This document shows positions 9,829 through 49,498 of a DNA stretch of 64,000 bases, one piece after another. Under the pieces are notes generated by a model. The model did not search any database, was not told the origin of the DNA, and saw only the letters and a list, made by a program, of their open reading frames with translations. Position numbers and translations under genes: made by a program. The stretch is taken from NCBI GenBank assembly GCA_965178125.1, contig OZ237746.1, positions 62,001-126,000 of the forward strand. Direction: 5' to 3'. Source of the stretch: Bilabrum cf. latius. Lineage: Eukaryota. Position 1 is the first letter of the stretch; the number at the start of each line of letters is the position of its first letter.

Positions 9829-10271
9829 GATCGTCGGCGTTCAAAAAAATCCAAGGCAATGGCGGTGCATTTACAGTCACGGATCGGCCCATTGACGCGC
9901 CATGAAGCATTATTACTGTCTTACATATCCATCGATTCCCTCGGCCCCCAATCCAACATCTGCGTCGTTGCTCCAGTCGTACTCTTCCATGTGCAACCAA
10001 ATTTCAAACGATCAATTAAGAATCGAGGCACTCTTGTACCGATGTGTGAGTCCTAAGGCTAAGTCTCCGATACTTTATCAGATTAATGATACACACAGGC
10101 TGCTCTATATTAATTGAGACCCTCGAACGCGAACGGCTTGGATGGATTGCGGACAGGCCAAAAACGGCGTCGAATATCTACACGCAACTGATACACTCGT
10201 CACGCCGAGCAAGAAAAAATATACCAGATCCAGTGCCAGAACTTGTACATTGCATTCATCGTCAAGCCAAA

Positions 10272-24077: not shown

Positions 24078-26768
24078 TCACAGGGGCACACCATCTGCCG
24101 CCCCACCCGAGGCAGCCTCCTTGCCCTCGCTGGGCATGCCCCCTCGAGAGCGCCTGCCCCTGCGCCCGCTGGACATGCCCGCGGCCTTGCACGCCTCCCG
24201 CAGGTCCTCCAGCGTGCGCGAGCGCATGCCGCGGAGCACCTCGGCGATCTCCTCGCTGCTACGCTTGTTCTTCAGCGCGAACCGCAGCACGCCCGTGATG
24301 GCGTCGAACTCCGCGGCTGTCCTGTACCCGCACCCCTTGATCACGTCCTCCTCCGTGTACTGCCCGCCCTCGATCTCGTCCCCGTAGAACTCGAGCTTGT
24401 CGTTGGCCAGCTGCCACCGCTTGTACACGTGCCGCAGGGTGCGCTCCTTGCGCACAGCGTCAGGGAACAGCTGCCCCGGCTGCCAGGCCCCCGCGTCGTC
24501 CTCAGAGTCCGAGTCTTCTGCCACGTCACGCCGCCGGCCCTTGGCGCCCTTGCGGCTACCTGAGGGGGTGCGCTTGGCGCTCCTCCCGCCGGCATCCGCG
24601 GAGACATCGTACTCCGGCGCGGTCGCTCCGCCCCTGACCTTGACCGCCACGTCATCGGCGGTGGCCAGGCTCTCCTCGTCCTCGTCGCTGTAGCCCCCTC
24701 CACGGCGGCCCTTGCCCCTGCCCTTACCCTTCCGGCGGGGGGAAGAAGCGGCAGCGGCGGCGCCGTCGTCTGAATCGTCCTCTGAGTCGTCGTCCTGGCG
24801 GCGGTGGCGCGTGTTCTTGCGGCGCCGGGCAGAGCCCCCGCCCCTACCCCTGCCACCATCCTCGTCATCCGAGTCGTCCTGGATGGCGAACCGAGCGGTC
24901 ATCTCCCGCTGCATCTTCTTGGAGCGGGAGTCCACTTCCTTCTGGATCTTCTTCTTGAGCATCTCCAGCTCTCGGATCTTCTCCGCCATTGGGTCCATGG
25001 ACAGGTCTGCGATGGGACAGAGGTGTGACCAGTGCGTGAGTGTGTGTGTGCAAGCGAAGTGACGAGCACATGGTGCAAGCGACATGGTACTTTGGCTCAC
25101 AGCTGGCCTCTCGTCGATAGAGCATGTGCTGCCTCCTGGCCCTGGACATGAGGACCGACCCGCCCGACACGGAGCCCTGGTCGTCGGGGATGCCCTGACC
25201 GAAGAACCCAGAGCTGGCCCTGTTGTAGTGCCTCAGCACCTCTCCCGCGTCCTTGTCGTTCTTGAGGGCCTGGGCGTCCTTGTCTCCCTCGAGCTTTGCT
25301 TGCTCTGCCTCGATCGCCTTGAAGTCCAGCTCCTCCAGCTCCAGCCTGAAGCCGAGCATGAAGAACCCGAAGACTGCCTTGCAGAGGATGTCCAGGATGG
25401 CGTGCAGGATGAAGTACCACTCCTCGTCGATCACCCCGGAGGTGTGGAAGGACAGCGTCCACAGCAGGGGGAAGAAGGGCCAGCCGGCGAAGAAGATGAG
25501 CCTGCCAGCGGACAGGTACCACCAGGCAGAGTCCGGGATCTTCTCCCTCTGCGCGTTGATCTCGTTCCAGAGAGCGTAACCCGCGCAGATGAACCCCGCA
25601 AGACCGATCCCGTACATGTAGTAGCGGTAGGGGGCATCCACGATGAAGGTCGCTACGGCGATGGCCAGCAGGCAGGCGATCGACGACGAGAACACGAGCT
25701 TGTAACGCAGGTTGACCGTGATGCAGAAGTCGAGGACCAGCAGCGGGCACGTAATCAGGTAGTCAGCGTACCAGACCTGGTTCAGGGAGAAGGCCGTGGA
25801 CTCGCCCGTGTCGTTGTACGATGCCCAGTCGACGGCCTTGAAGGCGTCTGCGAGAGAGAGGCAGGCTTTGCGAACTAATCAGAGATTCACCGCGGGCCTT
25901 TGCGCTTCAACTAATAGTCTACGAATTAGCACGCTAACTCTCAAACGACAGTTGACAACCCTAATTGTCTCACACATAACACCACAGAGGATTGAAATCC
26001 CAGGTGAAAGCCAGTTCTGCGATTAGCGACAGAGACAGCAATACATTGGCCCTTGAGTGTTCACATATGAGATAATCAGATGAAATGGATGCAGCAAGAT
26101 GGTTTGCGCTGAGCTAGTAGTCCGTATCCCGATGGAGCGCGTGCCAAAGCAATCAAGCGAGCGATCCGTTGCCGTTTCATAGGTGTGAAGACACAGCCCA
26201 AACAGTATCCCACTCACTTCTTCGGGTGGTCCCTCTGGTCCATGAGGTCTTGTGTTCCAGCCAAGACCGGCTGCGGTTTTCCATGCCATGTAGGCTGCGA
26301 TGCGTGGGTATGGTTCGGATCGAATGGTCACGGTGACAACGCCGAATTCAGGCATATTCTTTGAGCTATGCAGAGACATGGACGCCTCAAACACCAACAT
26401 AGACCCCCGTCTTATTGAAATTCATCATCAGGTAAAGGCTCAGCCCTACACGAAGAAAAAGCTCGCCTCTTGCATCAAACAGCAACATACTTCACTACGG
26501 AGGCATCTGATGCAATCAGGGCAGCTGAAGAGAGCCAACACGCAACATAGGCATACTCTCGGTCATTTTAATCACACGCTCTGCATGATTTCGGCCAAAA
26601 CTTGCCGCAAAAGTAGGAGGGAGCGGGTGTCGCGCTCGGGCTTTCCGGCGAAAAGCTCTCACCTCCAGCAGCCACCAAGATGATCGCTGTTATGGTATTG
26701 ACGGCAATGAGTGCACCGAATGTCCCCGGTTCTTTCTAGCAGACGCAGAGCTCGCAGCAATCAGACAT
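24078..26768 (-). CDS. Potassium-channelrhodopsin (KCR)-clade, bacteriorhodopsin-like channelrhodopsin, 633 aa with long cytoplasmic tail
   Basis: Five phase-consistent GT-AG exons: 26768-26663, 26294-26218, 26016-25974, 25847-25101, 25006-24078. TAG=Gln at codon 11. TM3 FSLNQVWYADYLITCPLLVLDF carries the D-T-D motif with Trp at the BR R82 position. TM7 ILHAILDILCKAVFG carries the retinal Lys and is followed by FRLELEE, as in HcKCR1. Confidence 0.93.
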
Positions 26769-27138
26769 GCTTAACCCGCCAGACAATATATCTGCTCGCG
26801 GTCGATCGCAGGGCGAGCACACACACGGTTGGTCGCAAGTCTGCGGTTGCAACCGGTATCGAATCGTGCCGATCGGCGATTGAAGCAAGTGCAACATTAC
26901 ATAGGCAAATCTGATCACAGGATAACCGAGGCCTAAACACCTGAGGCCATTGCATTCCACGCAAGCATCACACGCCGTGCCGTCCACGAAGTGGCAGCGC
27001 TTGGCTCTGACGCAAGAGATCTGACTATCAATGCACGGGCAGTGCGATGACTTCTCCCGGAAGTTCTCCGACGCCAGCTCGATTGTGCGGAGGACAGGAC
27101 AGGACGGCCAGGGTTAAAACCACGATGAGACCCAGCTG

Positions 27139-30100
27139 TCATGTCCCGTGCTCCACCCACAAAACAGCTGCGCCAAGCCCCCGAAGCGCCTCCAAGACTC
27201 GCCCTCGGCTGGCCCCATCAAGTGCACTCCACGCCTCGTCCGCCAGCAGCAGCCGGGGCGGGGGGCTCCTCAGCAGCAGCCTCGCCACCGCCACCCGCTG
27301 CAGCTCGCCCGCCGACAGCTGAGAGTGCCAGTCCCCACTGCGGCCCAGCTGACGAGCCAGCGATTCCAGCCCCACCGCCTCCAGCACGCGCTCCATCTCG
27401 GCGACATCCACGGGCTAGAGCGACGCACTCGTCACACCAATTGGAACACCAGGCCCCGCTCCCCCCTCCTCCACGCTAGATGTCCACTGCCAGCACGCCT
27501 CGCAGCACGACTCGCACTCGTCACACGAGCAACCCATGCACCCAGCCGCACCCTCCCCAGTTGCCTCATCAGGCTCCTCCCAACTGACAGCGCCACAACC
27601 AGCACCAGCACCAGCACCAGCACCAACCCCCGCTAGCAGACTCGAGGGTGCCCTCCTGCCGGTGCCCATGGCTAGCGCCAGAGCCAGCGGGACACCCTCG
27701 GGGATGTAGGGGAGGGGGCCCAGCCAGGCCACCGGGCCCGGGCTGCACTGCACTGCGGTGGAGAGCGCACCCTCGCGGGCTGGCACCCGGATGCTTCCAC
27801 TGGCAGCTCGCCGCAGCCCTGCAATGCAGTGCAACAGCGTGGTTTTCCCCGCCCCGTTCCTGCCGCTGACCCTCCACCATTCCCCTCGACAGGCCTGCAG
27901 GGACACGGGGCCCGGCGGCAGCGGTCGAGCAAGCCGCTGGTGGTTACGCTGCAGTCTTGCCACGCCTGGTATTGCTTGTACCGCAGGGACATTGCTCTGC
28001 ATGGCATGTCCTGCAACCACCGCCTGCATCTCGAGCTCGATGGGACCAGTTCCGGCGTCAATTGCGGCCTGCCCTCCGATTGCATCTCCACAGTGCACTG
28101 CATCTGGAGCTGCCAGAGACACCTGCACATCTGCCCCCAGCTGCTCATCCTATCCTCCCCCCTACCGCCGCCCCCCCTCCCCACCGCACTCGTCACACCC
28201 CTCGCACCGCCTCACCAGCTGCAGCACCCTCGCCCCCACCCCCATGAGCTCGGCGGCAGAGGCCAGGTAGTCCGGGAGGGCGCACATGTACAGGTTCAAA
28301 GAGATGAGCAAAGAGGACAGCGCGTACAGCGAGGCAAGCGACATCCTCCCCGTCCCCTCCTCGTCGCGCCCCTGTTCCCCTCCCGCCGCCCCCTGCGCCG
28401 CAGCAGCCGCAGCCACTGCCGTGAACGCATACGCGATCCCCGTGCCACCCCTCGCTGCCACCAGCGCCGCCAGCCTGGCGGGCGTCTCGAGCAGCACCAG
28501 GGAGTGCGCCGCCGCCAGCAACGAGGCCATCCTCGCGTCAGCGGTATCTCTCTCCCACTGTTCCCCGCCCAGACCAGCCACCGCGTCCGCCCTGTCCCTG
28601 GCCCTCGCGTGCCCCCGCCGCAGCACGCCCTCCCGCCTGCGCACCTCCCACACCGCCTGGGGAACAGGCTGCAAGAGGCACCGCGCCAGGGCCAGGGCGG
28701 CCAGCGCGAATAGCACACATAGCAGCACGGCCAGCCCACTGAGCCGACTGGCCGCCACCGCCGCGGACAGCAGCCCCGTGCACACCTGCACCAGCGACAC
28801 CCGCCCCCTGGCCCCCCACAGCGCCACCCCAAGGAGGTGCCCAGCCCTGTCCGTGTCCTGGGCCGCGCGCTGGTCCAGCCCGTCGCTCTCGCCCCCGGCA
28901 CCTGCCCCTGTGCCTGTACCTTCACTTGTTACACCTGAGTGCAGTGCACCCGGCGCCCTTGTTCCCTGGCCCTCCGCCCCCTCTGTCGCACCTGCGCCAC
29001 TTCCGTCCTGGCCCTGGGTGCCGCGCGCCAGGACTGGAAGCAAATGGGACCCAGGCGCCGCGATCGTGCGATGCACCCGGGCGGTCACCCTGCGGAACCA
29101 CCTCGCGCTCACCGCGGCTCCCAGCGATTGCGACCCGGCGTTCAGCGCCGCTGCCAGCGCATACGTCCCTGTCCCCACCCAGAAGGCCGCCCAGAAATCG
29201 TGGAACCTCAGCTCCACGATTGCCTGCAGCGCATCCCCCACCACGAAGGCCTTGGTCACGGACACGAGAGCGAGGAGAACCTCCAGCACGAAGGTGAGGG
29301 CCAGGAGGAGCCAGTCCAGGGACACCCGCCCGATGGGCAAGCCAAGTGTGATGAGTGCACCGCAGTCCCAGACGCCAGCCGCGGCTGCCTCGAAGCAGCC
29401 CCTGCACACACAGCCGCCTGCATGACCCGCCCGCTTGCTCCCATCGTGTGACGATTGCCCGGATGCGGGCCTGCGCTGAGTCTCGCCAGACGACCCCAGC
29501 AGGGGCAAACGGTCCGAGACTGGGGGTGCCACGTGTGCATTGGGAGCAGCGCTAGCGGCTGCCAGCCCCCCAGTGCCAGCGGATAGAGAAGGGACCCTCG
29601 CTGGCGAGCACGTCTCGATGGCTGGTGCACACTAGCCCAAGCCCTTCCTCGTAGCCCCATCCTAGTGCTCTCCATGGCTAGACGCGCTGCCAGTGCTACT
29701 CGCAGCAGTTGCATCAGTCCCCATCGCGCCCAGCTGCAACGCCTTCACCTGCCCCTGCTCCCATCCGGCCTCGACCAGCGCCTGCCTCGTCCTATCTTCC
29801 TGATGGGTCACCAGCACCACGGTACAGCCCACCTCTCTCAAAGCACGCGCACATGCCCTCAGCCCCTCGTCGTCCTGTGCCCCCAGCGCCTCGTCCGCCA
29901 GCAGCAGCCGGGGCGGGGGCCTCCTCAGCAGCAGCCTCGCCACCGCCACCCGCTGCAGCTCGCCCGCCGACAGCTGAGAGTGCCAGTCCACTGGAGCTCG
30001 TCTGTAGTCCTTGTTCCCCAGCAGCCTCTCTTGGATGCTTAGTGATAGATCCAGGGCTTGCAATGCCCGGGTCACCGCATCACGTTGTGCACCCGCATAT

Positions 30101-32533: not shown

Positions 32534-32857
32534 GTCGGCCAGCCCAACTTCCTGTTTTTTAACCTTAAGAGTCTATGCGACAAAATGCTGCAGTACTATT
32601 TATCTTGCACCTGTACAGTCCATATGTAGGTCCTCTGCACTATTACAGTGCAATGCATCCAAGTGGTTCCGCTCGGCATGATGCGCGGTGCCAGTCAGGC
32701 TTCTACTGCAGTTCGGCAACATCAGACCCTTCCACGCTACCTTGCGAGCACCGCCCGCTGGCTCAAAACGAACAGCGGAACGTGATAGCAACGAATATCG
32801 GAGTATATTGTCCAGCTCCTGCGTTTTGTTGGTTGCTGAAGCCGGGTTGATTGTGCA

Positions 32858-35800
32858 ATGCACGCCGGCTTGCGTCATGACCTCGACAGCCTGGTTCGAA
32901 AGGCGACAGTGGGGTACGGGGCCTGGTTGCTTGCGATAGCAACAGCAATAACCGCAATATACACATTTGCTATTGACCTCAGCGCATAGTCTGTCGGGTC
33001 TGAGGCTGCTTGGCGATCTGACAGAGCACACCAGCTCGATTTCAAGGTACCATCGTCAGCTCTTTCTGAAAGTGGACGGGAGCCGACTGGAAGCACCAAT
33101 GCGGCCAATGAGGCAATCAGTACTGCCTAGGTAGGCCTAGGAACTCTAGCAAGCTTCGTCTTTGCGATGAGTGTGCTTGGATTTGCTGCTGTGAGTTGTA
33201 TGCTAGGTCTCGAGTGGAGCAGGCACAGTTCTTTCTATGATTGCAGCTCACAGGCAAGGTGGGGCAGGCATTCGCTGATGACACTGCTATTATGGCTTGT
33301 TATGGTTGCTATCACAAGCGAAACGTATTTCTTTTACGTGCCGCTGCACCCTGGAGGCGGCATCTTCGGCAAAGGCCCTATAATGTTAGCCATGGGCGGA
33401 ATGCACAACTACCTTGGTATCGCCGGACGAATGATCAGGTCGCTACTGTTGGGAAACTAGTGGACGGTAAACGATATAACCGCATTTGAGCAGGCCCGCG
33501 TCGCGGCTCTGGGCCAGCCCTGGGCTAGCTCTGTGGTTGTGGTACTCACTGTCGTGGCCTCGATTATCATCGGGTCCACCACGGCGCCGCGCCCACAAGT
33601 GGAATTCAGGCTTAAGGCTGCTCGGGCAACTTGGATCGTGTCGGGGGCTCTCTGCGGCGGTCTCACGTTCACTCTTGCCGCGGGCTGCATGGGCCTGTCG
33701 CTGATCGGGGTCACGCAGAGCGTGCTCACACACGGGATGGAAGGGCTGCAGGACCTGGGGAACACGCTGGGGGTGGCAGGAGAGAACGCAAGCGTGTCTC
33801 AATTTGGTCCCGATGTGAATATCACCGGTCTGCTGCAGGCCAGCGTCGCTGGAGAGGACGGCGTGCCTTTGATCTTCCCTGCCCTGGTGCAGCTTGCGAC
33901 CAACGAGGGGCAAGCAGGTAAGCTGGAGGCCCTGGGCATGCGGGCAGGGCAAGAAGGGGTTCTGCGGGCTGCCCAGGCCTGGAGCCAGTTGGATGCAAGC
34001 GTGTCAGAGAGCGAGGCAATCGAGCTGCTGGCCCCGCAGGTGAACGACGTGACCACCTCCCAGCTGAACAGCGGGTGCCTCGTGTGGACGGCAAGGGCAG
34101 AAGCGCTCGCAGCTCACGCGGCTGTGTCTGCCCTGCGAAACCAAGCAGCAAGAGGGCCGCTACCGCTGCAGCTCTCCAACGGATTCTTCTCCATTGACCC
34201 CTCGAGAGACACAGCCAACGCCGCTGTCCCTATGCTGCCCGAGCAGCGAGCAGCGCCCGCCGCCTTTGTGCTGTTCCTGCTGATTTGCACCGTGACTACA
34301 ACCGTGTTTGCCATTTCGCTGGTTTTGACCCCCAGCAGGGGGCTGGACGAGGCCACCAGGGCAGCGGCGCAGGAGCTGAGGTCAATGGCAGGCAGGGATG
34401 GACAAGGGAATGAAGGTGGAGAGAATGATGGTGACGTGTGCTGTTCTTACCGGTGTATGCACGAGGCAACGATCGATGCTGAAGTAGCATGCGCGAGGTG
34501 GATTACCCCTGCTTGCGGGTGCTTTTAGCGCTTGTGCTGCTGGTGCGAGTGCTGCCGCTGCTGCTGCTCCATGGGTCTGCCTCGATGCTGCCACCCGGCA
34601 CTCAAGCCCGTCTTTGTGCCAGCTCGCCGCATCAAAAACAGGCGTAGAAACAAAGCCATCGCTAGCAGGGGCGATGAGTAGCATGCAGGCAGCAACCGTG
34701 ACAGGCAGGAGGAAACGGTCCGTGTGAACACCAGGCGGTGGGGCAGGGTAGGCACAACGGAGCTGAGGGTGGCGGCTTGCATGCACGAGACACTTGTCAC
34801 AGTCAGGCACTCCCTGGACCTGTGTGGGACAGACCAGGATGAAGGGCAGACGGTGGGCCACAGTGCAGCAGACAGGGCAGCTGCCGCTCGCCGCCCCTCG
34901 TCGCTCCTGGTCCGCAGCAGCCTGGCGAGGGCGCGCATGCTCGGGGCCTCTCTCAAGTTCATATCCGTGCTGCTGCTGATGGAGCTCTTTCTTGGACCAT
35001 TCACCCTAAGCCTGCTGCGGCATAGGTCCATGCGCATGTGCTAGTGTGCGACAGCGAGGGTGGAGGGGCTTGGGCCTAGCCTGGGACAGTGCGAAGACAG
35101 CGTGGCGGGTCGACCGTTGGCCGAACTTTTGGGGCCTGTCGCAATCGAGTACGTGTAGGACAGCACGGCTGTAAAGATTGTCATTCGGCTAATCCAGACA
35201 GTGCTGCGAGTGCTGCTGGTTGCTAGCATCTACGTGTATGCCAGATAGTCCAAGGAGATGGAGCAGGCCGTGGAGGTCTCGGAGAGGCAGAAAGCCGCGC
35301 TGCAGTCGAGGGTGCGGTTCCTGTCGCACGAGTGCAGGGTGCCTCTGAACTCGGTGGTGCTGGGTCTAGATTTCTGCCAGGAGGGAGCCAGCGCGACCAA
35401 GGGAGCGCTTGGGAGGCTGCACGTAGCAAGGGTGCAGTCGGACCGACTCCGACAAGCGCTTATTTAGGACTTGGATAGCGCAAGTGATGGCGTTCAGGTG
35501 AAACAGGGCTCCAGAGATCTCCGCAGGAGGCATTAGATTGCCGCCAAACAGCTGGCCTTGGACTTGGGAGAGACAACGGAGGCACTCGAGGAGGCTGTGG
35601 GTCTCTTCGATGACACGCTGCCCTCGCTCGAGGCAGCCACAGAGGCAATGCAGACCACCCTCAACGACGTGCTCGCCCTGCAGCACATCGAGTCTGGCCG
35701 CTTGCAGATCACCATGCGCCTGGCTCCCATCTTGCCTAGTATTCTAAATGAGACGAAGAAAACCTTCTTGGCCCAGGCAGAGGGAATGGGTGTCTCACTA

Positions 35801-38629
35801 GAAACGTGCAACAGGCACCCGGCCTCTGGCAAGAGCTTCGAATGCGACCCTCCGCGCATCCGAGGTGCCGTGTACAACTTCGTATCTAATGCGCTCAAGT
35901 GGTCCAGGCCTGACGAGGTGCTGGTCAAGCGGCTCCGGGATAGGGGATAGGACGTTGCTGAGGGTAGGGGCAGGGGAACACGAGACGACAGGCCCAGAGT
36001 AGTTGTGGGCTCAGCCGAGCGTCCTCCTCACCTATGGGGGGCAAGTCAGTGGCGGGAGGCCTGGTCCAAGATGGGGCCAGAGGCGTGCAGTCGGCTGCAC
36101 CGCATTGTGACGGGCCAGTATGGAGGGAAGAGAAGGAGGCCCCACCACGCCGACAGCAGGGCGAATATGGTCGAGGATATGGCGTCGAGAGACGCCTCTG
36201 GGTCAAGCCTGGCCGAGGATCGGGCGGCACCGCACACCCCAGGTCCCATCAGCGCTGGTCCCATCAGCGCTGGTGCCCTCAGCTTGTCCCAGCACGGGTC
36301 CCTACCGTCCATCGGCACAATGTTCCCCGAGAAGGGCGAGGGCGATGGAACTGCTGCATCCACGCCGGGCTGTAGTCCTCGGGTACGAAGCTCAAGGCGC
36401 AGTGTCAAGGGGCGAGGCAGCACTGGAGGCAGTGGCAGTGGCAGCGGCAGCGGAAACGAGAGCAGAAGCAGCAGCAACAGCCGCAGCAACAGCAGCGCAA
36501 TCGATGAGCACGAGTGGGCAAGCGGAAACACACCTGACTCGTAGAGCGGCACGGGTGACTCGTGGGCGGTCAGCGATGGGGAGGACCCAGACATGCTGGC
36601 AGCGGCAGAGGCAGCTGCTGCGGTGAGGAGGGGGGCGTGTGGGCCACTGTCCCAGATGCTGGAGGAAGAGGAGGACGAGGAATCGCTCGGGCGAAGACAG
36701 CCCACCGCCATCGGCATGTGGAGGCACAGCCGCGATGCAGCCAAAAGCACGCAGCGCGAAGAATGTGACCAGCTGCCCACCGAGGCCCAGATTGCCCCCG
36801 ATACTGTGGAGGTGTACGACGAGCTGCTGCGAGGAGTGGAAGAGGTATCAGCTGGAGATGATGCAGGAGTGCTTGTGCATGGGAAGGAGGGATCGGCGAC
36901 CAGCGGGATCGCGTGGGAGGAGAGCGCGTGGGCCGCCGGGGGAAATCGCGGTGGGGAAGGCGGGGTCGAGGGAAAGAGCGGTCTGTCCTCTGGCAGGTCT
37001 TCCAGCGGAGACAATGATGCTTCTAGCGCCACGAGTGTCAGAACCAGCTCTGATCAGGTCATGCCGGTGTGCATGTGGGTGTACGACGAGGGCCCTGGGA
37101 TCCAGAGGAGGGACTGGAGGCAGGTCTTCACCCCCTTCGAGACGCTGCACTCGGGCATCCTCACGGCGGAGGGGCAGGGGTCAGGACTGGGGCTGGCCAT
37201 CACCGCGACGGTGATGAAGATGCACGGGGGGTGTGTGGGCTTCAGCTCCATGCCTGGTGTGGGTAGTGTATTCTTCCTTTGGACCAAGATGCGCGTTGCA
37301 GGCGGCAGCACTGGCGTCAGCAGCCGCAGTCACAGTCAGAGCCACAGCCTGCCTGTGTCAGTCTGCGATGTCAACGACATCTTGGGGGGCACTGAAGCGG
37401 CCACCATCCAGCTGCCACCCCGGGCCATAGCCCCTGGACTGAGTCTCAGCCGACGGTCGAGCGGGAGCGACGCTGCGGGCGGCGGGCTTGGTCTGTGCCC
37501 GGGCCCAGTCAAGGAGGTTGAGGATGAAGACGAAGATGAAGATGAAGATGAGGAGGATGGAGATGGGGTAGCTGGTGTGGAGCAGGAGACGGTTCTGCCA
37601 TTCGAATCAGGCAGCGACAACCAAGAGGTCAGCACCAAAGCCGGCAGCAAAGTGCGAACGACCGGTCCGGTGCAGTCTGCAGGGTGGCGGCAGCAGGCAA
37701 ACACCGCCGGTACTCGGGGGGACAACAACTGGGCAAGGGCCGGTGTATCTACGGCCAGCGCGATGACACCTCTGCACCGTGGCAAGGGGAGTGGCAGCAG
37801 TGCGAATTGGGTGTCGGGAGGTGTCATTGCGCGGGAACAGGAAGAAGATGAGGAGGACCAAGGGGGTGCCGAGGTGGACACGAGCCAGCTGCAGGAGTCA
37901 CACCTTGCACAAGCAGACCCAAGGGCACCATCGTAGCGGTCGGAAGGCCAGCATAGTCTGGATGTCTCAAATTCAGGACCAGCACCGGCAGGGGAAGGGG
38001 CACCGGCACCGGCTGGGGCAGGGATGTTACCTGCAAGCGAGGGTGGTGGCAAGCGCAAGCAGCGCCGCGTAGTCAAGAAGAAGAGAACGAAGCGTAAAGA
38101 GGCAGAGAAGAAGCCTGAAGCAGCCGCCGGCAAGCCCTTGGGCTCAGGGTCGCAAGCAGCCGACCGCGCTAGGACAAGCGAGCCCGCTGACTCGCAGCCA
38201 CAGGGCAAGGTGGTGCTCGTGGTGGACGACAGCCGCACCAACAGGCTCTTCCTATCACGCATGGTGCGATCTGCGGATCGATCCGTTCAGGTGCTGCAGG
38301 CCAGTGATGGGCAGGAGGGGCTGGATGTGCTCAAGCAGAGAGCCCAGCAGATGGGAGATCAGGACCATGGGCTAGCCGCCGACCTGGTGCTGCTGGACTT
38401 CTCCATGCCTCGCATGTCCGGGCCCGAGATGGCGCGGGCCGTGCGCGAGGACAGCGACAGCCGTATCCGCGGGGTGCCGATCGTGGGTGTGACGGGCAAC
38501 GCGCTGCCCGAGGACCAGGCGTTGTTCCGGGAATGCGGGGCGCAGGACGTGCTGCTGAAACCGGTGCGGCGGGTGCAGGTTGGAAAGGCACTAGGCAGGA
38601 TGGATGAGTTGCGGGCCGCACTGGCCTGA
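32858..38629 (+). CDS. Multi-TM hybrid sensor histidine kinase (HisKA, HATPase, receiver), ~1920 aa
   Basis: H-box FLSHECRVPLNSV, N-box NFVSNALKW, G1 DEGPGI, F-box VFTPF, G2 GSGLGLAI. Receiver VLVVDD...LLDFSMPRMSG...VTGN...LLKP. Eight ORF-track pieces lie in one frame separated only by TAG, ending at TGA. Start at ATG 32858 is inferred. Confidence 0.88.
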
Positions 38630-38735
38630 ACAGAGGGAAGAGTGGTGGCCCTGTGGTGCGGTCGCAAAAGTGCACTGTACCGATGCTAACAAACCACACT
38701 GCAACTGCATTTCTTTTTTTTCAAACCTACACAAT

Positions 38736-41700
38736 ATGTCAAGTGCAAGCGGGGCAAGTTCCCCATCTTCTGATGTCCCTTGGGACGCTAGCATGGTGGC
38801 TTTGGTAAGCAACCGGTGCTGGCCCGACACTTTCGCCGTGCGACCTGTGCTGCCCATCCGTTTATCGCAATTTCCTCGGCGGACCCCTCCACTGCGCAGT
38901 GTGCCGCAATCGGGGTTAAACGATCCCATTTAGAACGCTAGCGAGAGCAAGTTCGATCCATTGCGTGCTTCCAGGTGCCCGCGCTCCGCTGCCATTCGGT
39001 CGACTACTTTCGCCAAGTTGAGGATGTGGAGTGCGTGCAGTGCAGGCACATGAGATCAATTCATCTTCCCTCGCTTGTCGTTCTGCGAATTTTAAATCTG
39101 AACGAATGCGGTCTCGAATCTATGGCCGGCGTAGCTGCCCTCCCTTCGCTGGAGCGGCTGTACCTGGACGGCAACAAGATTCGTCGGGTAGAGGGGCTGG
39201 CCAGGCTGCGCCGTCTGCGGACGCTCTGGCTGAACGACAACCGGATCGAGAGCTTGGCTGGAATCCATGGCACCGCCGCAAGCGAGAGCCTCGAGACGCT
39301 GTGGGTGGCCCGCAACCGCGTGCACTCGCTGGGTTGCTCGCTCGAGGGCTGCTCCCGTCTGCAGGAGCTAAACCTGGCCGACAACTCCATTGGGCACTTC
39401 GGAGAACTGGCTACCCTCGCCCGGCTGCCCTCTCTGAGGAGCCTTGCGCTGGAGGACCCCCACTTCGGGGGCAACCCCCTGTGCGCGCTCTGCAACTACA
39501 CCCCCCTTGCCCTCCACCAGCTGAGGGGGGTCCAGGCCCTTGATTCCATACGGCTCAGCGAGGAGCAGAAGGCGGGCGCAGAGGCGACTTTCTTGAAGAA
39601 GCGCATGTACTACAACATGAGGATCCGCACCATCCACAGGAACACTTCCAACGTTCTCAGGCGGGCGGCATCGGCTCTGGGGGCCCGCATCGGGGAGATT
39701 CGCACGGGGGCGAGGCAGCTGCTCATGGGATGGAGGGACCTGCTTGCGGGCATGTCGGCGGCGAGGGGCCTGCTGGAGGCAGGGGACGAGGGGCTGGCCA
39801 AAGAGGCAAAGAGGCAGGAACCCAGGCTGAGGAGCATGCTCCGATCGATCGAGGACTGCGTGAGGCATCGGCTCGCGGCGGAGGTCAGGCTCCGGTCCGG
39901 GCTGGATTCCCTGCGATCCACGCTGCGGAGCGTGTCTCAGCTGCATGTGAGGAGGTTGGTGCTGGAGCTGGAGACCGGAGGCAACATCCGACTGGAGGAC
40001 GGGAGGCGGGGGGAGCTGTGGCACGACTCTTGCGTTGACCTGGTGCGGTCGAGGTTCCACTCGAAGGACTTCCAGGCCGTCGGGATCAAGGGGGTGCGGG
40101 TCAGGAGGGTGACCCGCATCCACAACAGGTACCTGCGGGCCAGGTTCGAGAGGAGGAAGGCCGCCATCATCGGGGCCGATCCGGAGCTGGCGCAGGAACT
40201 GGGGGCTGCGGGGACACAGGGCGGGGCGGGGGCGTCTGCGGCAGGGACCAGGAAGGGTGGGGGAGTGGGAGGTAAGGAGGGGCAGGGCAGGGCCGCCGCG
40301 GATGCGGCGCGGCGCCGCGCGCTGGAGTACCTGTTCTACGTTCCGCAGTGGTCCAGGGAACAAGCGGACCGGGAGCCCTGGCGCGCCGTGGAGGAAATCC
40401 AGCGGATCGCCGAGCACGGGTTCAGCGTCCCACAGCACGCGCAGGCGGCAGCGCCAGTCCCGCCGCCCTACTCTGCCCCCGCCACGAGGCTCCCGCCGCC
40501 TACGTTCGCCCACCCCCGGAAGCGGTTCGGGAAGGCAGCTCAGCAGCCCACGCCCGCCCAGCGCCTTGCGGCCGAGACCACGGGTCCGTGGGAGTACCCG
40601 GCCGCGCCCGGCGTGCTGTTCTCCAACTCGCTGTCTGCCCTGGAGCTGCCTCGAGTGGCGGAGGCAACGGCCCGCACACTGGAGCAGCACCGGGGCCCAC
40701 TGCTGGAGGGGCTGGGCTCCGAGGTGAAGCAGTGGAGGAGACAGGGGGACAGGGGCAGAATCGGATCATCGTCGTCCCCATCATCACCACCACCGTCCTC
40801 TTCGTTCCAGGCGTCTTCCGGGCATGCGGCAGCTGCATTTGGCGTGCCTGCAAGCGTGGCTCAGGTGGCTGCGGCTGCCTTGCGAGACCTCCAGCAGCAG
40901 CAGCAGCAGCGGCATGGAAATGAACCGGGGGAAGATTCAAAGGAATCGGAGCTGAAACCCAGGCCTGCCGCGTCCGGTGCCGGCAGTCTCGACGGCAGCT
41001 CCTCTGCCCCTGCCCCTGCATTTCCCGATGCCAGCGATGCAGCCACCGGGCTAGACGGGCTTGCCGCCCTGCACGCCTCTGCCTCGGACAGAGTGGCCTC
41101 CTGCCTGGAAGGAGCCATTGCCACTGGGAGCGCCGGGAGGGAGCGAGCGGGCTGGAGCGCCACCGGCATGCTGCAGGCCACCGGCATCGAGAGCTCCGGG
41201 GGGCCCCTGTCCATGGGTGGCGCGGGGATGGCTTCGTTCACGAGGCTGGCTGTGAGAGAGAAAGTGGCGAATGAGACGGCCGCTGCCGCTGCGGCGAGTG
41301 GGCAGGGGAACGGGTCCAGGCACGGTGCCTCTGGGAGTATGTCTCTTGACTCGTCTGCCGGCGCTCTGCTGGGCGAGACGGGGCCTCGCCTCACGAGGGC
41401 GGGCTGCTCCGAGGGTGTGCTGCTGATCTCCAAGGTGTTTCTGGGGCATTGCATGGGGGCTGAGGAGGCCTGGGAGCTGCACCACGGGGACGAGGACGAG
41501 GGGGACGAGGACGATGATGCCGATCAGGAGGACTCGCAGTAGCAGCAGCAGGGGGCGTTTGGAGGCAGGAGTCCGGTCTCCTCCGGAGCAGCGAGCCCAT
41601 ATTACAGGAGCTCACCGGCTGCCTCCAGAGCAAGCACGCCCGCTGGCCCCAGCCCAAAGGAGAGAAAGAGGCAGCAGCGCAGGCGACCGGTGCACAGCGT

Positions 41701-44700
41701 GGTGTCGGCACGTGGAGACGATCCCAAGCAGCGGCAGTGGTGCGTGCTGGATCCCAACACGGTACTGCCAGAGTACATCGTTGAGTTCGAATACTTGTAC
41801 GAGCCGTCTGCCGAGGCTATTCGGGCGGGGATCGCCAGTGGGACAGCGATGGGCGCGGGTGCGTCGGTTGCCTCGCAGGGAGCTGGCAGGACCAGTCCCC
41901 ACGATGCGGGGGGGCTGTCAGTGGTGGGCCGCACCAGCGCCGCCTCCCAGGCATCTGCCAGCGCCAGGCACTCGCCCACGGGCAGTGCGGGGGGCAGTCT
42001 CGGGGGTAGGAGCAGCCGGACTGGAGGCGGCGCGGGAGAGGGGGAGGACGGAGACGGCCAATACATCGCTCCTGTGGGGAGCGGGGGCTCCAGCGTGGTG
42101 GCTGAGCTGGAGGCACTGGCCTAGATCGCGCTGGGTGGGATTGGAGGAGGTGGTGGAAGTGGGGGGGCTATAGGGGGGGGCGAGGAGGAGGGCGGGGATG
42201 GTCGAGGGGGGCCGCCCGCCGTGCACCTGGCACCCCAGGAGGAAGCGGATCTGCGGCCTCTGGCCCGTCCTCTGGCCCGTTTCGTGAGAGATTGCTTGGG
42301 ACTGGGGGCGTACTTCGCAGGGCCCGGGGAACAAGAGGCGTAGGACGCGGTGGCTAGAGTGGCGGACGATCTGCCCACCCGACCCACCCCGAGGGAGTGC
42401 CTGGCGCTGGCCGTGCAGGTGGCAGGCGACGGTGGTGGTGTGACGAGCGCGATTGGCGGCGGCGGTCCCGACGGGCTGCAGATGGTGTCGTCCCCCGCGG
42501 GTCCCGCCGCCAGCCTGCACTCGTCATCCCACGCAGCCCTGCTGTCCCTGCCGGAGCCCTCATCCGGCCCCCAGGCCAGCCGGGCCCTCCGTGGACTCGC
42601 CGCCCTGTCCCTGGCATTCTGTTCCCTGCAGTCGCTGGACACCATCGCGCCTCTGCTGTCGATGCTCGAGAGCATCCGGTTGCTTGACCTCACGGGCAAC
42701 GCGATCTGCGAGCTGACGAGTGGGGAGCATGAGCAGGAGGATAGCCAGGACGGCACTGGGGCAGGTGCGGCATCATCCTCCTCCTCCTCCTCTCCCGACA
42801 CCTGTCCCCTGGCCGCAGTGGGAGACACGCTGGAGGTGCTGCTGCTCACTGACAACCGCATCGCTGGGCTGGAGGACCTGCCTGCCTTGCACAGGGCAGT
42901 GCCTGGGCTCCGGTCGCTGTGCCTGCGGTACAACCCGGTGGCGCAGGCGCAGGTGACAGAGGAGACCGCGGCAGCGGGGTCAACAGAGCCCGACACTGCC
43001 GTTGGATTCGACACGGGCGGCGGTGGTGGTGCTTCCAGCAGTGGCAGCGGCCTGGATGCAAGCGAGATCGGCGAGCCGGGCATTCAGGCCGTGCTGTCGC
43101 TGATGCACGCAGGGAGGGCGGGGGCGGCGGTGCCCGACGAAATGCGGCTCCTCGCACCCAATCCCGCCGAGGGGCCCACAGGTGGGGGTCTCCCGCGAGG
43201 CAGTGCGGTGCACCTTGTGCCTGGCAGCGGCGCGGTGGGCGGCAGGTACCGCCGGGAGGTGCTCCGCGCTGTTCCCTCGCTGACCCACATCGACGGGGTG
43301 TTGTTGCTGCCCAGGGAGAGACAGGCGGCGGTGGGGGCGCCCACGAGCGTGTCCAGGGCACTGGCGGCCTCCAGGGCGGTCGATGCGGTGGGGAGGCCAG
43401 CCTACGAGACCAATGCGAGGGGAGGGGAGGGTGCGGTGGAAGATGGGGAGAGGGAGGGGGAGGTGACGGAGATGGGGGCCGTCACTGGCGCACCGTCCTA
43501 GGCCCGAGGTCCTTCTGGTTTAGCCACCATGGTGCAGGTGGGCAAACCCGACACCCTGGATCTCAGCCGGCTGGGCCTGCGCACGCTCCTCGGGGACGGC
43601 TTGCGATCCGTGGGCGGTCTCCGCGTGCTGGACGTGTCTTGGAACGAGCTGACCGGGCTGGAGGGTGTGGGTCACATGAGCCAGCTGGAGGAGCTGAGGG
43701 CCGAGGGGAACAGCCTGTCCAACGGGAGCCCAGAAGGGGCAGCTCCAGCGGGTGATGGGACCACGGGCGCCGCTTCTTCAAGCACCAGCACCAGCACCAG
43801 CCTGGTCTCCCTGCGTCCCCTGGCCCCTTCACTGCTCCGGCTAGACCTGGGCCGCAACCGACTCTCTTCTTTCGAGGGGCTGCAGGGACTAACCCGGCTG
43901 CAGCAGCTGAGTCTCGAGGACAACGGGATCACTCGGCTGGACGGGCTGAGCCGGCTGCAGCACCTCATGGAGTTGTACCTGGGGAACAACAAGGTGCGAC
44001 CGCTCAAGGAGGTGCTCCGTCTCAGGGAATTGCCGCGGGTCATCATCCTGGACCTCAGCGGCAACCCGCTGGCGCTGCAGGGCAAATACAGGCTGTTCAC
44101 GGTGTACCACATGAGGAGGCTCAAGGTGCTAGACGGGGCCTCCATCTCCAGCAGGGAACAGCAGGAGGCCAGGGAACAGTACAGTGGGAAGCTGACCCTC
44201 GATTTCCTGGAGGACAGGCTGCAGGGCCGCAGATTCGACTCCATCCGGGAGCTCGACCTGAGCGCGGGCCGGATCAAGGACATGGAGCTGCTGCCGGGGA
44301 ACAAGTTCTGCAACCTCGAGGTGGTGGACCTCAGGAACAACAGCCTCACGGGACACGGGGTCAAGGGCCTCCGGGCCCTCCCCAAGCTGAGGGTGCTGCG
44401 CCTGGGCTCCAACAAGGTGCACTCGGTGGTGGCCGCGGTGACGGCGCCGGCGCCGAGGAGTGATGCAGCGGCGGGAAATGGCGAGGGGGCTGGGGCTGGG
44501 GCAGCGACGGGGACTGGCAAGCCCTACTCGCCGTTTCCTTCCCTCAGGGAGCTGGATCTGTCCCAGAACGCGGTCGCGGACGTGGGTGCTGTGGGGCTGC
44601 AGCACCTGCCGGGTGTGACGAGCGTGGATCTCAGCGGCAACGACATCACCAAGCTGCAAGGGGGGCTCAGGGGCTGCGGGCACCTGCGGTCTCTGTCGCT

Positions 44701-45595
44701 GAGCAAGAACAGGATCCGGGTCGTCGAGCTGTCCGACATGCAGGCGCTGACGGGGCTGACGTCGCTGCGGCTGGCGGAGAACGGGATCAAGCAGCTCGGC
44801 GGGCTGACCTGCCTGCAGCCGCTGCAGCTGCTGGACCTCTCGGGCAACCGGGTGCACGACATGTTCGAGATAGAGAAGCTGGCCGCACTGCCCTTCCTCG
44901 CCGATCTGAGGATGCAGGGCAACCCGGTGTGCAGGCGGCAGCTGTACAGGCTGGGCGTGCTCCGTCACCTAGACCTCCTCGCCAGGCTGGACGGGCAGCC
45001 TGCCACTGACGAGGAGAAGCAGAGGGCCGCCGCCATGTTCGACGGGGGCGGGGGCGGGGGCGGGGGCGTTGTCGAGGACGGGGGGGGCAGGAGGACCCCA
45101 GGAGGGGGAGTGACGTACTACGGTGGACCAGGGGGTGGTGCTGTGACGAGTGCGAGGTCTGGTTCCCCCGGGATGGGGGTGCTGGGGGTGGCGGGGTCCT
45201 CGGCCGGGGGGGGCCCGGGTTCCAGGGGTCGTGTGACGGCCGTGACCCTGGGCGCGCTGTCGGTGATGGGGTCGGGGCGTGGGGGGCGGGGGATGGTGGG
45301 GAGGGGGGGAACAGGTCTGGTCGCGGGTCTGGTGCCCAGTCGGGGCGGTGGATCAGGTGTGCTGGGCGGGGGGTTCGGAGTGGGGGGGGGTGAGGCGGGG
45401 GTGCTGGCCGCGAGGGGCTCCCGCAGGCGCGGGGGCGCTGGGAGCGGTGCCTCCGGGCGGTCCGTGAGCGGAGGACTGGTGGGAGGGGCTGCCCCGGGGA
45501 CCAGGGGGTCTGCAAGTGGAGCACACGGCCACGGGTCACGGAGGTCTCCGCGGGCAGTACGCTACGGCAGCTCGTCAGCTTCGTTCCGCGGCTGA
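38736..45595 (+). CDS. LRRC9: Leucine-rich repeat protein, LRRC9-like (cilia-associated)
   Basis: Several SDS22-like LRR blocks with LRRcap motifs (GNPLC, GNPVCRRQLYR...LDG). LRRC9-type segments KKRMYYNMRI, ELETGGNIRLEDG and WHDSCVDLVRSRF. Intron 38805-38899, TAG read-throughs, TGA stop. Confidence 0.8.
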
Positions 45596-45943
45596 CGGAT
45601 CCAAAATTTGGATTCCAAATTCCACAATTTCAAATCCTTGCAAGCACTTTATTGACCGAACGAACAGGACTATGAGAAATCATGTCTAGAAAACTACACA
45701 GCAACGATCGGAGAGAAGGAGGGAATGTCACGTTGCCCATGGACGGAATGAGAGCGCCCGAGGGAGGGAGCGCCCCAGCCCACAGAAGGGGAGATAGTGG
45801 GGAGCACGAGGCCACCCCAGGATAAGGTAAAAGCCCGCGGCCAGACGAGTCATCCCTGCCGCACGAGCCGCCAGACAGGCGGCAACATCCTGATCCGGAT
45901 TGGCCAGCACGGCCATGCTCAGCCCTAAGTGGAGTCATCCTTC

Positions 45944-48900
45944 TCACATCGGCAGGTCGCGCCGGCGGGAACCGCTGCGCCCGCTCCTCCGGCTCCTACG
46001 GCCGGAGCTGGAGTACCCGCCCGCCTCACTGTCCTCGTCATCCTTGCCCCCGAAGGCAGCCCCCATCCCGCCCACGCTGGAGCCCCGCCCCATCCCGTCC
46101 CCTCGGCGGCTCTTGCTCCTCCGGCTCCTGCGGCCGCTCCTGCCGCCCCCTTCTCCTCCCCCGGTCATCCCCAGCTGCGAGCCTTCCCTCCTCACCCCAC
46201 CCCCTCCCCCTCCCTCCAGGTCGATGTCACGCGGATCCACTGCCCCCCTGCCAGGGGGCACGACACCCGGGGAGCTCCCCCCCAGTGCCCCCACGAGCCC
46301 CTGTGCGCTGCTCCTGCGGCCCCTGCCACCACCACCCATGGAGCCCCTACGGCCCCGGGACCGAGGCCTGCCCTAGGCCACGGCACCGGCCGCCTCCTCC
46401 TCCTCCTCCTCGTCATCGCCCATGCCCTGATCATAGAACAGCGCGTTGCTCAGGTTGATCAGCCCGCTGTCCTCCCGCCGCACCCGCGCCTCCCCGTACC
46501 CCACGTCCAGCACGCTCGCCACGTCGTCGTCACGGTGGTCTCCCCGGTGGCCCCGGCCGCCCCTCAGCTGCGAGGCGGCGTGGGCCTCGAGGGCGGCCCG
46601 GCGAGAGAGCAGCGCAGCCGCGCGCTGCTTGGCCGTGGCCTGCGCGGCGGTCGCAACCACCCGGCAGGCGTTCTTCTTGGACTGCTCCGCCTCCCTGCGG
46701 GTGCCCTTCGCGTCTGCCAGGCGGTCCACCAGCGCCCCCAGGTACTCCGGGTTCGCGGGGTGCCTGAGGAACACGCGGCAGCCCAGCTCGGCCATCTCAC
46801 GACGGCTCATGTGCGCGGAGGTCTTGGGGCCCGCGGAGCCGTCGGCGGGTGCCGCACCAGCCGCAGAGGCGGTCCGCCCGCGCAGCTCCCTGGGCAGCTT
46901 GAGGCGGTACCCGACCACGTACAGGGGCCCGAACAGCCGGCGAGTGCGCATGGCCGGGCTGTCCACGGCACCGTCGTCGCTCTCCTCCCCCTCCTCCTCG
47001 TCACTGGAGGGCTCCTCCGAGTCCTCATCGCTGGCATCGGCTCCGGATCCGTCCAGGGACACGGACTCGGCCCTCCCCGATGGCTTCCACCCGGCGGGCT
47101 TGGCCTTGCCCTTGGCTCCCTCCTGCCCGTCAAAGCCCCTCTGCGCCTGCGCGGCGCTGTAGACGAGCAGCCCCGCGGCCTTCGCGTCCCCTTTGGCCAT
47201 CGAGGTGACCCTCCGCACCTCCTCGCCGTTCACCATCACGGCCGCGTACTGCTTGGTCCTGCCCTTGGCCGCCACGAACCTGAAGTCCTTTGCCCGGAAC
47301 AGGAAGTCCGCCTGCACCTCCACGCCATTGCCCTCCGCGTTCACCCTCTCGAGAGCGTCCTCCATCATGCGCTGCCTCACCGGATCCGGCTCCACGATGA
47401 GCACCCTGACCCTGAGCCTCCGGGCGTCCCTCTGCAGGTGCTCCATGGCACGCTGCACCACGCCCAGCAAGGCGCTCTCGTCCATGGCCACGTCCGCCTG
47501 GCTGGTGGCGCCCAGGGCAGCGGCCAGGGCGGGATCCGCGGGTCCGTCGGTGAGGGCGAGGGGGTCGGCGACGGCTCCTCCACCCCCGATGCGGGGGGCA
47601 GAGGCGCCGTGGTTCCGCCCGGAGGCTGACGCGGCGGAGGAGGGGACGGGCTGCGCGTTGCCTGCCTCGTCCGCCTGCCGCTTGATGTCCGAATCGTCCA
47701 GTGCCTCCTCGGCTGCCTCCGCTGCAGCCTTGGCCTTGGCGGCTGCGCGGGCGGCCTTCTTTGAGCTCTTGTTGCCCTCGGCGGTGATGTCCAGGGACGC
47801 GATGCCGTGCTTGCGCTGGGGAACCAGGCGCCAGCGGACCCACCACGCCACGAAGGACTGCACGTTCTTGGAGACCTGCGTGTGCGGCGGGGTGGTGCAG
47901 GCGCAGGTGCAGGGGCAGGTGCAGGTATGATACGGGACTCGTGAATTTGCTTGCTACCGTGCTAAAACTTTGGACTTGTCGATATGTGTCGCCGTATTGG
48001 ATTACCAGTCGGCAGTAGGCGATGCGGCAATGCCGGCCTGCCGCAACAAGTATCTCCGACGGCCCAAATCGCAGCGACCGTGCCCGTTGGCTGCCAGTGC
48101 AGCAGACTCCCGCGGCAGTCGCATCGCGCGAAGTATTTGTAATACGCCATCAAAGAAGCACGAGTACTCACGATGTCCAAGATAGCGTGCAGGATGATGG
48201 ACGAGGATATGTCGATGACGCCGAAACCTTCGGGGCCGAGCAGCCACACCACTGCGACGACGATGCGGACGAAAGGGCGTGTAAACGGGATGCAGCAATG
48301 CTTACGGGCGAATCCAACGCTAGTGCACGGTCCATTTAGTTTGTATTTCTACGATCTCGCCGTGCTCGGCGCCACTCACGAGGAAACATGGTCCAAGACG
48401 TGAAGAAAAGACCGAACAGCGTGTTGACTCCCTTGTGCGCAGCCTCGGGATATGACTGGATGCAGCGCCCCCACACATCGTACATGATGTAGAAAATACC
48501 AGCCCCAGCCATGAGCCCGAGCAGGAACAGTACGACCTTGGCGGGTCCCTGCGGGATAGAGGATCCGGTCTTTAACGAGCCAGCAATGCTTCGGAGATGC
48601 GAGCCACGATTCAGGCACCAATCTGAGACTCACGCCGTAAATGATAGCTCCAACACCAAACACAATCATGAGCTGGTCAAGGATCAGCAGAGTCAGCGTG
48701 TCGGTTGGCTTCTTGAGCTTGCGGCTCAGCGGCATGTTGGAGAGCAGGATCAGGAGCACTGGGCACGTGGCTAGCCAGCCGCCGTACCTCATGTAGTTGA
48801 ATGGCGTGCCATCGAGGTCAATCAGCGCGTTGCCTCCGAACACCAGCCCAATCAGGTACGTTGACGGCTCTGCGAAGGCGAGCGAGGACAAGCCGTGAGA

Positions 48901-49498
48901 AGCAGGACACGATGAGATAAATGATGGAGGGCCTTTGGTAGCCACCGCTTCGGACAGAAAACATCCTAGTTGAAAATACACTTGATGCAGCAGAGATCTC
49001 TGCCGCACGATCAGGTTTTCCGGAGCATGCCGCCTGTGAAGCAGCCATGATCGGCTGCGTTGTCACCGTGACACAAGGAAGTATTGCGGCGCCTCCGCGC
49101 GCACCAACAAGAAGAAATCACTCACCAACTGCCGCGACATATAGAACCTGCAAAGACGAGGGCGTGGCTCGCCATGCAGGCCGGTAGGGGTGCTTTTGGT
49201 GGGCAAGTGAAGCGAAACAGGCGTCGAGGTCCGTTGCAGCCCAGCGACTGAGCAGCTGGTGCCTCCGATCTGACTTCTTACCTCCCATCCGCATCGTTTC
49301 TGGGTTCTTTGGTAGTAGTAAAAGGCACACTGGCACAAACTGACGATAATGACGGTCGTGGCTGCGTGCATGGTGAGCCGAATTGTTGCAACAGACATCA
49401 ATGCTCGGACAGTCCAATCGGGCTATAGCAGAAGCAATGTATTGGTTCTCACACGCCCATGTCGAAAGCCCAAGCTCTACGTTAATAGTACTAGCCAT
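45944..49498 (-). CDS. Anion-channelrhodopsin (ACR)-type rhodopsin, 854 aa, with C-terminal degenerate receiver-like domain
   Basis: Seven phase-consistent GT-AG exons: 49498-49453, 49361-49282, 49147-49126, 48869-48634, 48548-48380, 48251-48172, 47875-45944. Motifs CGWEVLYVAAVE, RYGGWLATCPVLL, LDQLMIVFG, WTMFP, LGPEGFG and ILDIVSKN (retinal Lys). TAG=Gln at 46373-46375, TGA stop. Confidence 0.9.

Follow-up and report, generated by a model that had tools for sequence, protein, structure and literature searches.

Does the close packing of two light-gated channel genes and a signaling kinase in a protist genome point to a selected photosensory neighborhood, or does the locus stand out for another reason? 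A first-pass annotation raised a photosensory neighborhood as a candidate, allowing that the linkage may be chance, for a 64,000-nucleotide stretch of Bilabrum cf. latius DNA (hereafter the window; G000:C12:62001-126000 of a 48.57 Mb assembly in 111 contigs), in which genes for a K+ channelrhodopsin (KCR), an ABCD transporter, a hybrid histidine kinase (HK), LRRC9 and an anion channelrhodopsin (ACR) follow each other. By its channelrhodopsin sequences the source organism, a marine flagellate, is close to Bilabrum sp., which belongs to the bicosoecid stramenopiles. Our analysis favors a plainer account, to which we assign a probability of roughly 0.7: the stretch holds five ordinary genes whose linkage is incidental, and they are readable because the nuclear code has changed so that UAG specifies glutamine. 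Both channels are already catalogued (B1ChR2 and B1ChR3) and their closeness may be due to chance; what stands out is the recoding of UAG in a stramenopile. Articles and preprints are cited for the accessible portions of their text.

Five intact genes containing in-frame TAG codons

The genes and their relevant parts are as follows.

24078..26768, minus strand: KCR, ortholog or allele of B1ChR2/BlChR2 by match to PDB 8JXO and by gene model (5 exons, 633 residues, ends with TGA)
26768-26663, 26294-26218, 26016-25974, 25847-25101 and 25006-24078, minus strand: KCR exons, GT..AG introns
26736..26738, minus strand: in-frame TAG at KCR codon 11, where published B1ChR2 transcripts have CAA (Gln)
32151 to 27139, minus strand: full-size ABCD-type transporter with alternating transmembrane and nucleotide-binding domains (TMD-NBD-TMD-NBD; two ABC_membrane_2 matches and ABC_tran), start approximate
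32858 to 38629, plus strand: membrane hybrid HK by Pfam domains, start codon uncertain
about 38942 to 45595, plus strand: LRRC9/FAP234 ortholog of about 2200 residues with 4 TAG by homologs, start approximate
45944..49498, minus strand: anoecid ACR, ortholog or allele of B1ChR3 (7 exons, 854 residues, ends with TGA)
46700..47416, minus strand: receiver domain without the phospho-Asp, in the tail of the ACR (residues 365-603 or nearly so) with two disordered inserts, by predicted fold

The five genes are intact, ordinary and closely packed, with gaps of 313-707 bp between neighbors. Domain matches, gene models and homologs bore out the identities, order and strands given by the first-pass annotation, including its statement that two channelrhodopsins of distant families lie on the same strand with the transporter, the membrane hybrid HK and LRRC9 between them. 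None of the five frames stays open unless TAG is translated, a point absent from the first-pass annotation: there is one in-frame TAG each in KCR and ACR, four in LRRC9, nine in the ABCD transporter, which forms a single frame, and 13 in the HK. With TAG as a sense codon, Pfam-positive fragments of the window merge, each set forming one frame that spans 1500-2300 codons and closes with TGA. Under the standard code KCR would end after 10 codons.

UAG is read as glutamine

We determined the meaning of TAG from conserved proteins encoded across the genome. With TAG as sense, 17 of 18 dynein stretches were open over the whole 10 kb. Their 58,385 codons included 244 TAG, 2161 CAG and 370 CAA. Columns counted as conserved when six or more other rows were present and 70% or more of these agreed. 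In the 24 conserved columns at TAG the majority residue was glutamine 16 times, glutamate three times and valine, isoleucine, glycine, arginine and tryptophan once each. Glutamine was the majority residue at 153 of 230 CAG columns and 18 of 25 CAA columns, and TAG did not differ from CAG (Fisher p=1.0). Ras-family genes showed the same behavior: TAG stood at the glutamine of the DTAGQ (G3) motif in 8 of 30 loci fetched from 65 matches, and one of these eight has a second TAG after it, where glutamate is usual.

Gene ends were assessed in a sample rather than the whole genome. Of the 30 Ras-family loci 20 encode a terminal Cys prenylation motif; the codon after it is TGA in 16 cases, TAA in four and never TAG. 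Ten histone ends (nine of 30 loci picked as distinct types, and H4) comprised seven TGA, three TAA and no TAG, and the eRF1 gene ends with TAA. Internal stops were all TAG in HATPase (7 of 46 rows), receiver domain (REC; 8 of 50 rows) and dynein (12 of 23 matches). TGA or TAA occurred inside Ras matches in 3 of 65 rows, probably representing introns. Judged from these sequences, UAG is almost certainly a sense codon for glutamine genome-wide, while UAA and UGA remain stops.

The TAGs might instead be true stops in pseudogenes or errors of the assembly, and one B1ChR2 allele has indeed been published as a pseudogene. That allele carries TAG at the glutamine of L-N-Q-V-W, where the window KCR has CAG. 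This exchange explains the ‘premature stop’ alleles of B1ChR2 as CAG/TAG variants under the changed code. Against this, essential single-frame dyneins and Rabs are interrupted by TAG only, and at the TAG sites independent sequencing runs show no difference from the assembly. We regard this explanation as already refuted.

Decoding machinery

A tRNA with anticodon CUA was found at G000:C23:907607-907679 (69.8 bits), as a single copy by pattern search. Six of its seven acceptor bases are those of tRNA-Tyr, whereas G73 and the D-stem correspond to tRNA-Gln(UUG). In E. coli the tyrosine amber suppressor inserts glutamine once A73 is changed to G, and the tRNA-CUA described here may have taken a similar route. 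This tRNA would then be charged with glutamine. The origin expected for a UAG-reading tRNA is tRNA-Gln(CUG) (PMC5304391). The eRF1 protein has kept its GTS and YxCxxxF motifs and has TAVNIKS for TASNIKS; by this change it may have lost recognition of UAG. We also considered L69Q in eRF1 as a mark of recoding, which turned out not to be specific since it is present in PDB 8IP8 too.

Some observations weigh against glutamine as the meaning of UAG. Eight of the 24 conserved TAG columns are not glutamine, three of them being glutamate, though this miss rate equals that of CAG. Among the tRNAs scored, covering 63 of about 780 candidates, tRNA-CUA was closest to tRNA-Tyr(GUA) with a score of 50, followed by tRNA-Glu with 44 and tRNA-Gln with 43 and 42. 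UAG could be ambiguous, acting as sense inside genes and as stop at their ends, or could specify another residue such as tyrosine or glutamate. The tRNA-Tyr-like acceptor and anticodon stems and the three glutamate columns are what such a code would lead one to expect. However, tyrosine is the majority residue at none of the 24 columns, 21 tyrosines compare with 494 glutamines among all residues aligned to TAG, and TAG closes none of the 20 Ras-family genes with a prenylation motif and none of the 10 histone genes. We therefore consider an ambiguous or different meaning very improbable and retain glutamine.

Reading of UAG in a relative

The sole relative of the locus that we found, one of 57 pattern stretches, is a 4294 bp fragment (L123) carrying an ACR ortholog; it is too short to reach KCR. 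The tail of this ortholog is 61-69% identical to that of the window ACR and has two in-frame TAG (in L123:1192-3183, plus strand), opposite serine and alanine of the window protein. Another assembly of the L123 protein (P0133) has serine at the first of these sites. The stop ending P0129 stands opposite glutamine. No fragments by which the relative's code could be read were found among the shorter proteins searched. The sequences suggest that the relative reads through TAG too, perhaps as serine, two sites being too few to settle the residue. A speculative and rather unlikely extension is that UAG was captured twice in one small bicosoecid group, as glutamine here through a tRNA-Tyr-derived amber tRNA with an A to G change of the discriminator, and as serine in the relative. 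If true, this would mark a stramenopile hotspot of code change and an unexpected tRNA route.

The two channelrhodopsins

The large KCR exon matched BlChR2 (PDB 8JXO) at E 2e-136 with six differences in 205 aligned residues (97% identity). The DTD motif and the retinal lysine are present (D105, T109, D116 and K233 in HcKCR1 numbering), and the filter set W102, F222, L69, S70, I73, D87, W88, N99 and F210 (same numbering) is that of B1ChR2. The end of the tail (24100-24470, minus strand) comprises about 110 non-repetitive residues that belong to no Pfam family and are retained in the published transcript. B1ChR2 is K+-selective in cells (PMC9733931), and cryo-EM structures exist (bioRxiv 2023.07.22.550149; PDB 8JXO, 8JXP). 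By analogy with this protein we infer that the window KCR gives a light-gated, K+-selective conductance and photocurrent.

The ACR had GtACR1 as its best match among solved chains and is by eye nearly identical to B1ChR3 (PMC9733931 supplement). It has glycine at the Asp85 position, a glutamate in transmembrane helix 2 (TM2), the TCP motif and the retinal lysine. All six introns were seen as CT..AC joints in runs X6, X7 and X8 from two studies; the RNA status of these runs was a guess, which the spliced joints support. The in-frame TAG is located at codon 712 (46373-46375). A spliced contig crosses this site without difference, and the homolog P0002 continues past it and matches the tail beyond. 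Since three Cafeteria homologs conduct anions (PMC8406140), the window ACR would likewise be expected to give a light-gated anion conductance and photocurrent.

The first-pass annotation had also assigned a receiver-like domain to the ACR, which holds for the predicted fold. The tail modeled from an alignment of eight sequences reached a pLDDT of 63, compared to 39.5 for single-sequence AlphaFold. In a structure search with this model all 50 rows listed were receiver domains, the best of them with a Z of 11.3 and an rmsd of 2.4 Å over 115 aligned residues. Searches at the sequence level were negative: Pfam gave no match for the tail, and its profile compared to 19 receiver domains of the same genome reached an hhalign probability of 1-2%. 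Foldseek with the tail model gave no match at E<=1e-3. ESM Atlas returned small bacterial proteins at 0.91-0.92 (5 of 30 hits, from a set with 11% Response_reg), which we treat as a lead only. A receiver fold of the tail is thus supported by structure prediction, without support from sequence comparison.

Strand order and local alignment assign asparagine to the phospho-Asp position, tyrosine to that of Thr/Ser and histidine to that of Lys: Asn closes strand 3, Tyr closes strand 4, and the residue before Pro is His in place of the customary Lys. Lacking the phospho-acceptor Asp, the tail cannot be a phosphoryl substrate of the HK in the usual way; this non-phosphorylatable domain is most likely a docking or targeting module. 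Degenerate receivers with Asn57 have been described on channelrhodopsins from prasinophytes, viruses and labyrinthuleans (bioRxiv 2020.04.15.042127).

The genes between the channelrhodopsins

The HK has eight hydrophobic segments, the H-box histidine (35327-35329), a split HATPase_c domain and a canonical REC with D, D, T and K. HisKA scored only 18.2 bits, below the cut-off of 26.9, and the sensor region had no Pfam match. Paralogs of its core domains with 83-93% nucleotide identity lie elsewhere on C12 and on C17. LRRC9 gave 123 matches at E<=1e-30, many of them named LRRC9 and one FAP234. We know of no photosensory role for LRRC9/FAP234. It has been described as a general partner of tubulin glutamylase (PMC3873882).

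Is the linkage selected?

The chance figures given here come from a uniform model applied to a pattern chosen after the fact. A KCR-clade gene lies within 25 kb of an ACR locus with p of about 0.006, any two of seven type-1 rhodopsin loci lie within 25 kb of each other with p of about 0.02, and the chance of a HATPase or REC match in any one 25 kb stretch is 2.3%, a lower bound. For a single genome these values are low. In L123 the gene next to the ACR ortholog is a hybrid HK and not LRRC9; it lies tail to tail with the ortholog, about 230 bp after the stop. From gene counts we estimate an HK abutting the ACR ortholog to be an event of about 1%. The first and third of the chance values, this HK and the rarity of its position weigh against incidental linkage.

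They would fit a neighborhood under selection, in which KCR, ACR and the hybrid HK are kept together for co-regulation and the HK or its relay docks on the pseudo-receiver, adjusting how the flagellum responds to light. The tail's receiver fold and two other ACRs lying head to head on C18 can be added in its favor. The presence of an HK beside the ACR in both organisms is the best point for the first-pass annotation, yet in this one short contig the neighborhood is not conserved gene for gene. The L123 HK matched loci on C37 and C40 with 61-66% identity (E 3e-94) and the window HK with 40% (E 1e-18). It is therefore not orthologous to the latter, and we dropped the idea that HK synteny is conserved. 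No channelrhodopsin remnant was present at the C37 and C40 HK loci in the five stretches fetched.

In the one relative, LRRC9 is not adjacent to the ACR, whereas a hybrid HK is, though as another paralog. Genome-wide counts do not by themselves lead one to expect such proximity; however, the pattern was picked post hoc and HKs are numerous. HATPase_c occurred in at least 40 places (40 of 69 candidates scored) and REC in at least 50 (50 of 64 scored), with a REC match no more than 4 kb from HATPase_c in 31 of the 40. None of the five other rhodopsin loci had a scored HATPase or REC match within 50 kb. A two-component link gains from the HK next to the ACR ortholog in the relative and loses from the different paralog, the missing phospho-Asp and the number of HKs. 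Pseudo-receivers are moreover a family trait in green algae, viruses and Labyrinthulea (bioRxiv 2020.04.15.042127), and the sole CCR of Cafeteria groups with B1ChR1, not B1ChR2. Taken together these points make a selected neighborhood unlikely; it would retain the code change too.

The linkage could also be a relic of an old channelrhodopsin cluster into which ABCD, HK and LRRC9 were inserted later, the arrangement having no present function. The shared strand, the low chance value, the pairing of rhodopsin genes on C12, C13 and C18 and the local gene turnover beside the ACR in L123 agree with this. Against it, the KCR and ACR families are deeply separated (PMC9733931), the other rhodopsin pairs are within-family and no outgroup shows the linkage. 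A relic appears less probable still than selection.

At the time of the PMC9733931 supplement, no stramenopiles besides Bilabrum and Cafeteria were known to have both channelrhodopsin families, so that their co-occurrence in one anoecid flagellate is already published. The accessible text of PMC9733931 makes no mention of a KCR-ACR linkage. In Cafeteria the published BVI numbers of CbuChR1, CarACR2 and CarACR3 are at least 370 apart, a weak proxy for distance. The viral contigs searched contained no relatives. KCR and ACR probably both feed the light responses of the cell, for which linkage is not needed, and the 19 kb spacing with the intervening HK, ABCD and LRRC9 genes is most likely incidental. 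A functional gene cluster is unproven; the neighborhood would matter only if the linkage proves conserved.

Other genes of the window and genome

Scoring of all 14 candidates in the rhodopsin search gave 11 matches, which we read as nine genes: CCR/KCR-clade genes on C12 and C8, ACRs on C12, C18 (two) and C1, two fusions on C13 and a pump on C28. The C18 pair and the C1 gene (L081:3900-5200, minus strand) are classed as ACRs by motif likeness and not by a tree. The C18 genes lie head to head (L078:4036-6966, minus strand, and 8038-10120, plus strand) and both have receiver-like tails; they are two different ACRs, and an initial reading as identical inverted copies was wrong. The C13 rhodopsins (488192 and 497663; L005, L006) are near-identical and inverted, with long tails that by eye resemble degenerate histidine kinase domains. 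The C28 gene (L002:1621-2169, plus strand; G000:C28:531007-531627) encodes an NDQ-motif rhodopsin with sodium-pumping rhodopsins as best solved matches (E about 1e-25), and its contig is a host contig having in-frame TAG. A limited literature search gave no eukaryotic NDQ pump. The large hybrid HK family extends over C42, C24, C17, C40, C37, C35, C6, C19 and C29, often as clusters or inverted pairs.

Several other genes of the window contain in-frame TAG: an FG-GAP repeat protein (2882-7927, minus strand) with 21 TAG and a paralog in L122, a histone stem-loop binding protein (8068-9840, minus strand), an ARM-repeat protein that is kinase-like by eye (15091-21840, minus strand) and a histidine phosphatase (50150-52042, plus strand). 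A reverse transcriptase frame (60969-63626, minus strand) has 18 in-frame TAG, indicating a retroelement translated with the code of its host. The 1547-codon protein at 52477-57120 (minus strand) has Tudor/chromo-like repeats and no match among shorter proteins. Positions 59381-59535 (155 bp) recur identically in L122.

AT-rich tRNA clusters including anticodon TCA (L012, L014, L015, L022; G000:C111) are probably mitochondrial, with UGA read as tryptophan. Two nuclear tRNA-Ile genes (L019, L072) have anticodon GAT; eukaryotic tRNA-Ile usually has AAT.

Comparison with known systems

The window KCR and B1ChR2/BlChR2 share 199 of 205 aligned residues, the filter residues, the intron-spliced N-terminus and the tail; they differ by six substitutions in the compared stretch and by the TAG at KCR codon 11. 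The genomic position of the KCR is now known. The ACR resembles B1ChR3 and CarACR1-3 (PMC9733931 supplement; PMC8406140) in the glycine at the Asp85 position, the TM2 glutamate, the TCP motif and the retinal lysine, and differs in the full 854-residue model obtained here, with 143 residues beyond the TAG. Its receiver is C-terminal to the seven-transmembrane domain and has Asn for Asp57 and changed Thr87 and Lys109, like the Asp-less receivers of prasinophytes, viruses and labyrinthuleans (bioRxiv 2020.04.15.042127). Unlike those it is split by two long disordered inserts, and the accessible text of that preprint does not mention anoecid ACRs. LRRC9 shares N-terminal leucine-rich repeats, a conserved middle region, C-terminal leucine-rich repeats and relatives across ciliated eukaryotes with the known LRRC9/FAP234 (PMC3873882), but is stretched to about 2200 residues by low-complexity inserts.

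Nuclear codes in which UAG and UAA differ in meaning are rare, with examples from few lineages (PMC5304391, PMC11687900). UAG alone is listed as glutamine for Iotanema, Protocruzia tuzeti, Hartmannula and Trochilia, and the accessible text of the paper with that list (PMC11687900) never uses the word ‘stramenopile’. We found no earlier report of UAG as glutamine in a stramenopile; subscription literature was poorly covered, so an earlier report may exist. Titles and the beginnings of abstracts among the Bilabrum papers listed (including PMC11412368) contain nothing on the code, and broader literature listings gave no stramenopile case either. When annotation applies the standard code, these genes come out truncated; alleles of an optogenetic tool were set aside as pseudogenes, and more rhodopsins of this group may be hidden likewise. 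The mechanism can be tested directly in this stramenopile, which is culturable and has a good assembly, an identified tRNA-CUA and an altered eRF1 motif; Cafeteria, with its standard code, provides a close control.

The code is thus like those of Iotanema spirale, Protocruzia tuzeti, Hartmannula sinica and Trochilia petrani (PMC5304391; PMC11687900) in that UAG specifies glutamine and UAA and UGA are stops. It differs in its stramenopile lineage and in a relative that may read UAG otherwise. A tRNA-CUA was found here, unlike in Hartmannula or Trochilia, where it was not detected, and it is more like tRNA-Tyr than the tRNA-Gln from which the published expectation derives it (PMC5304391).

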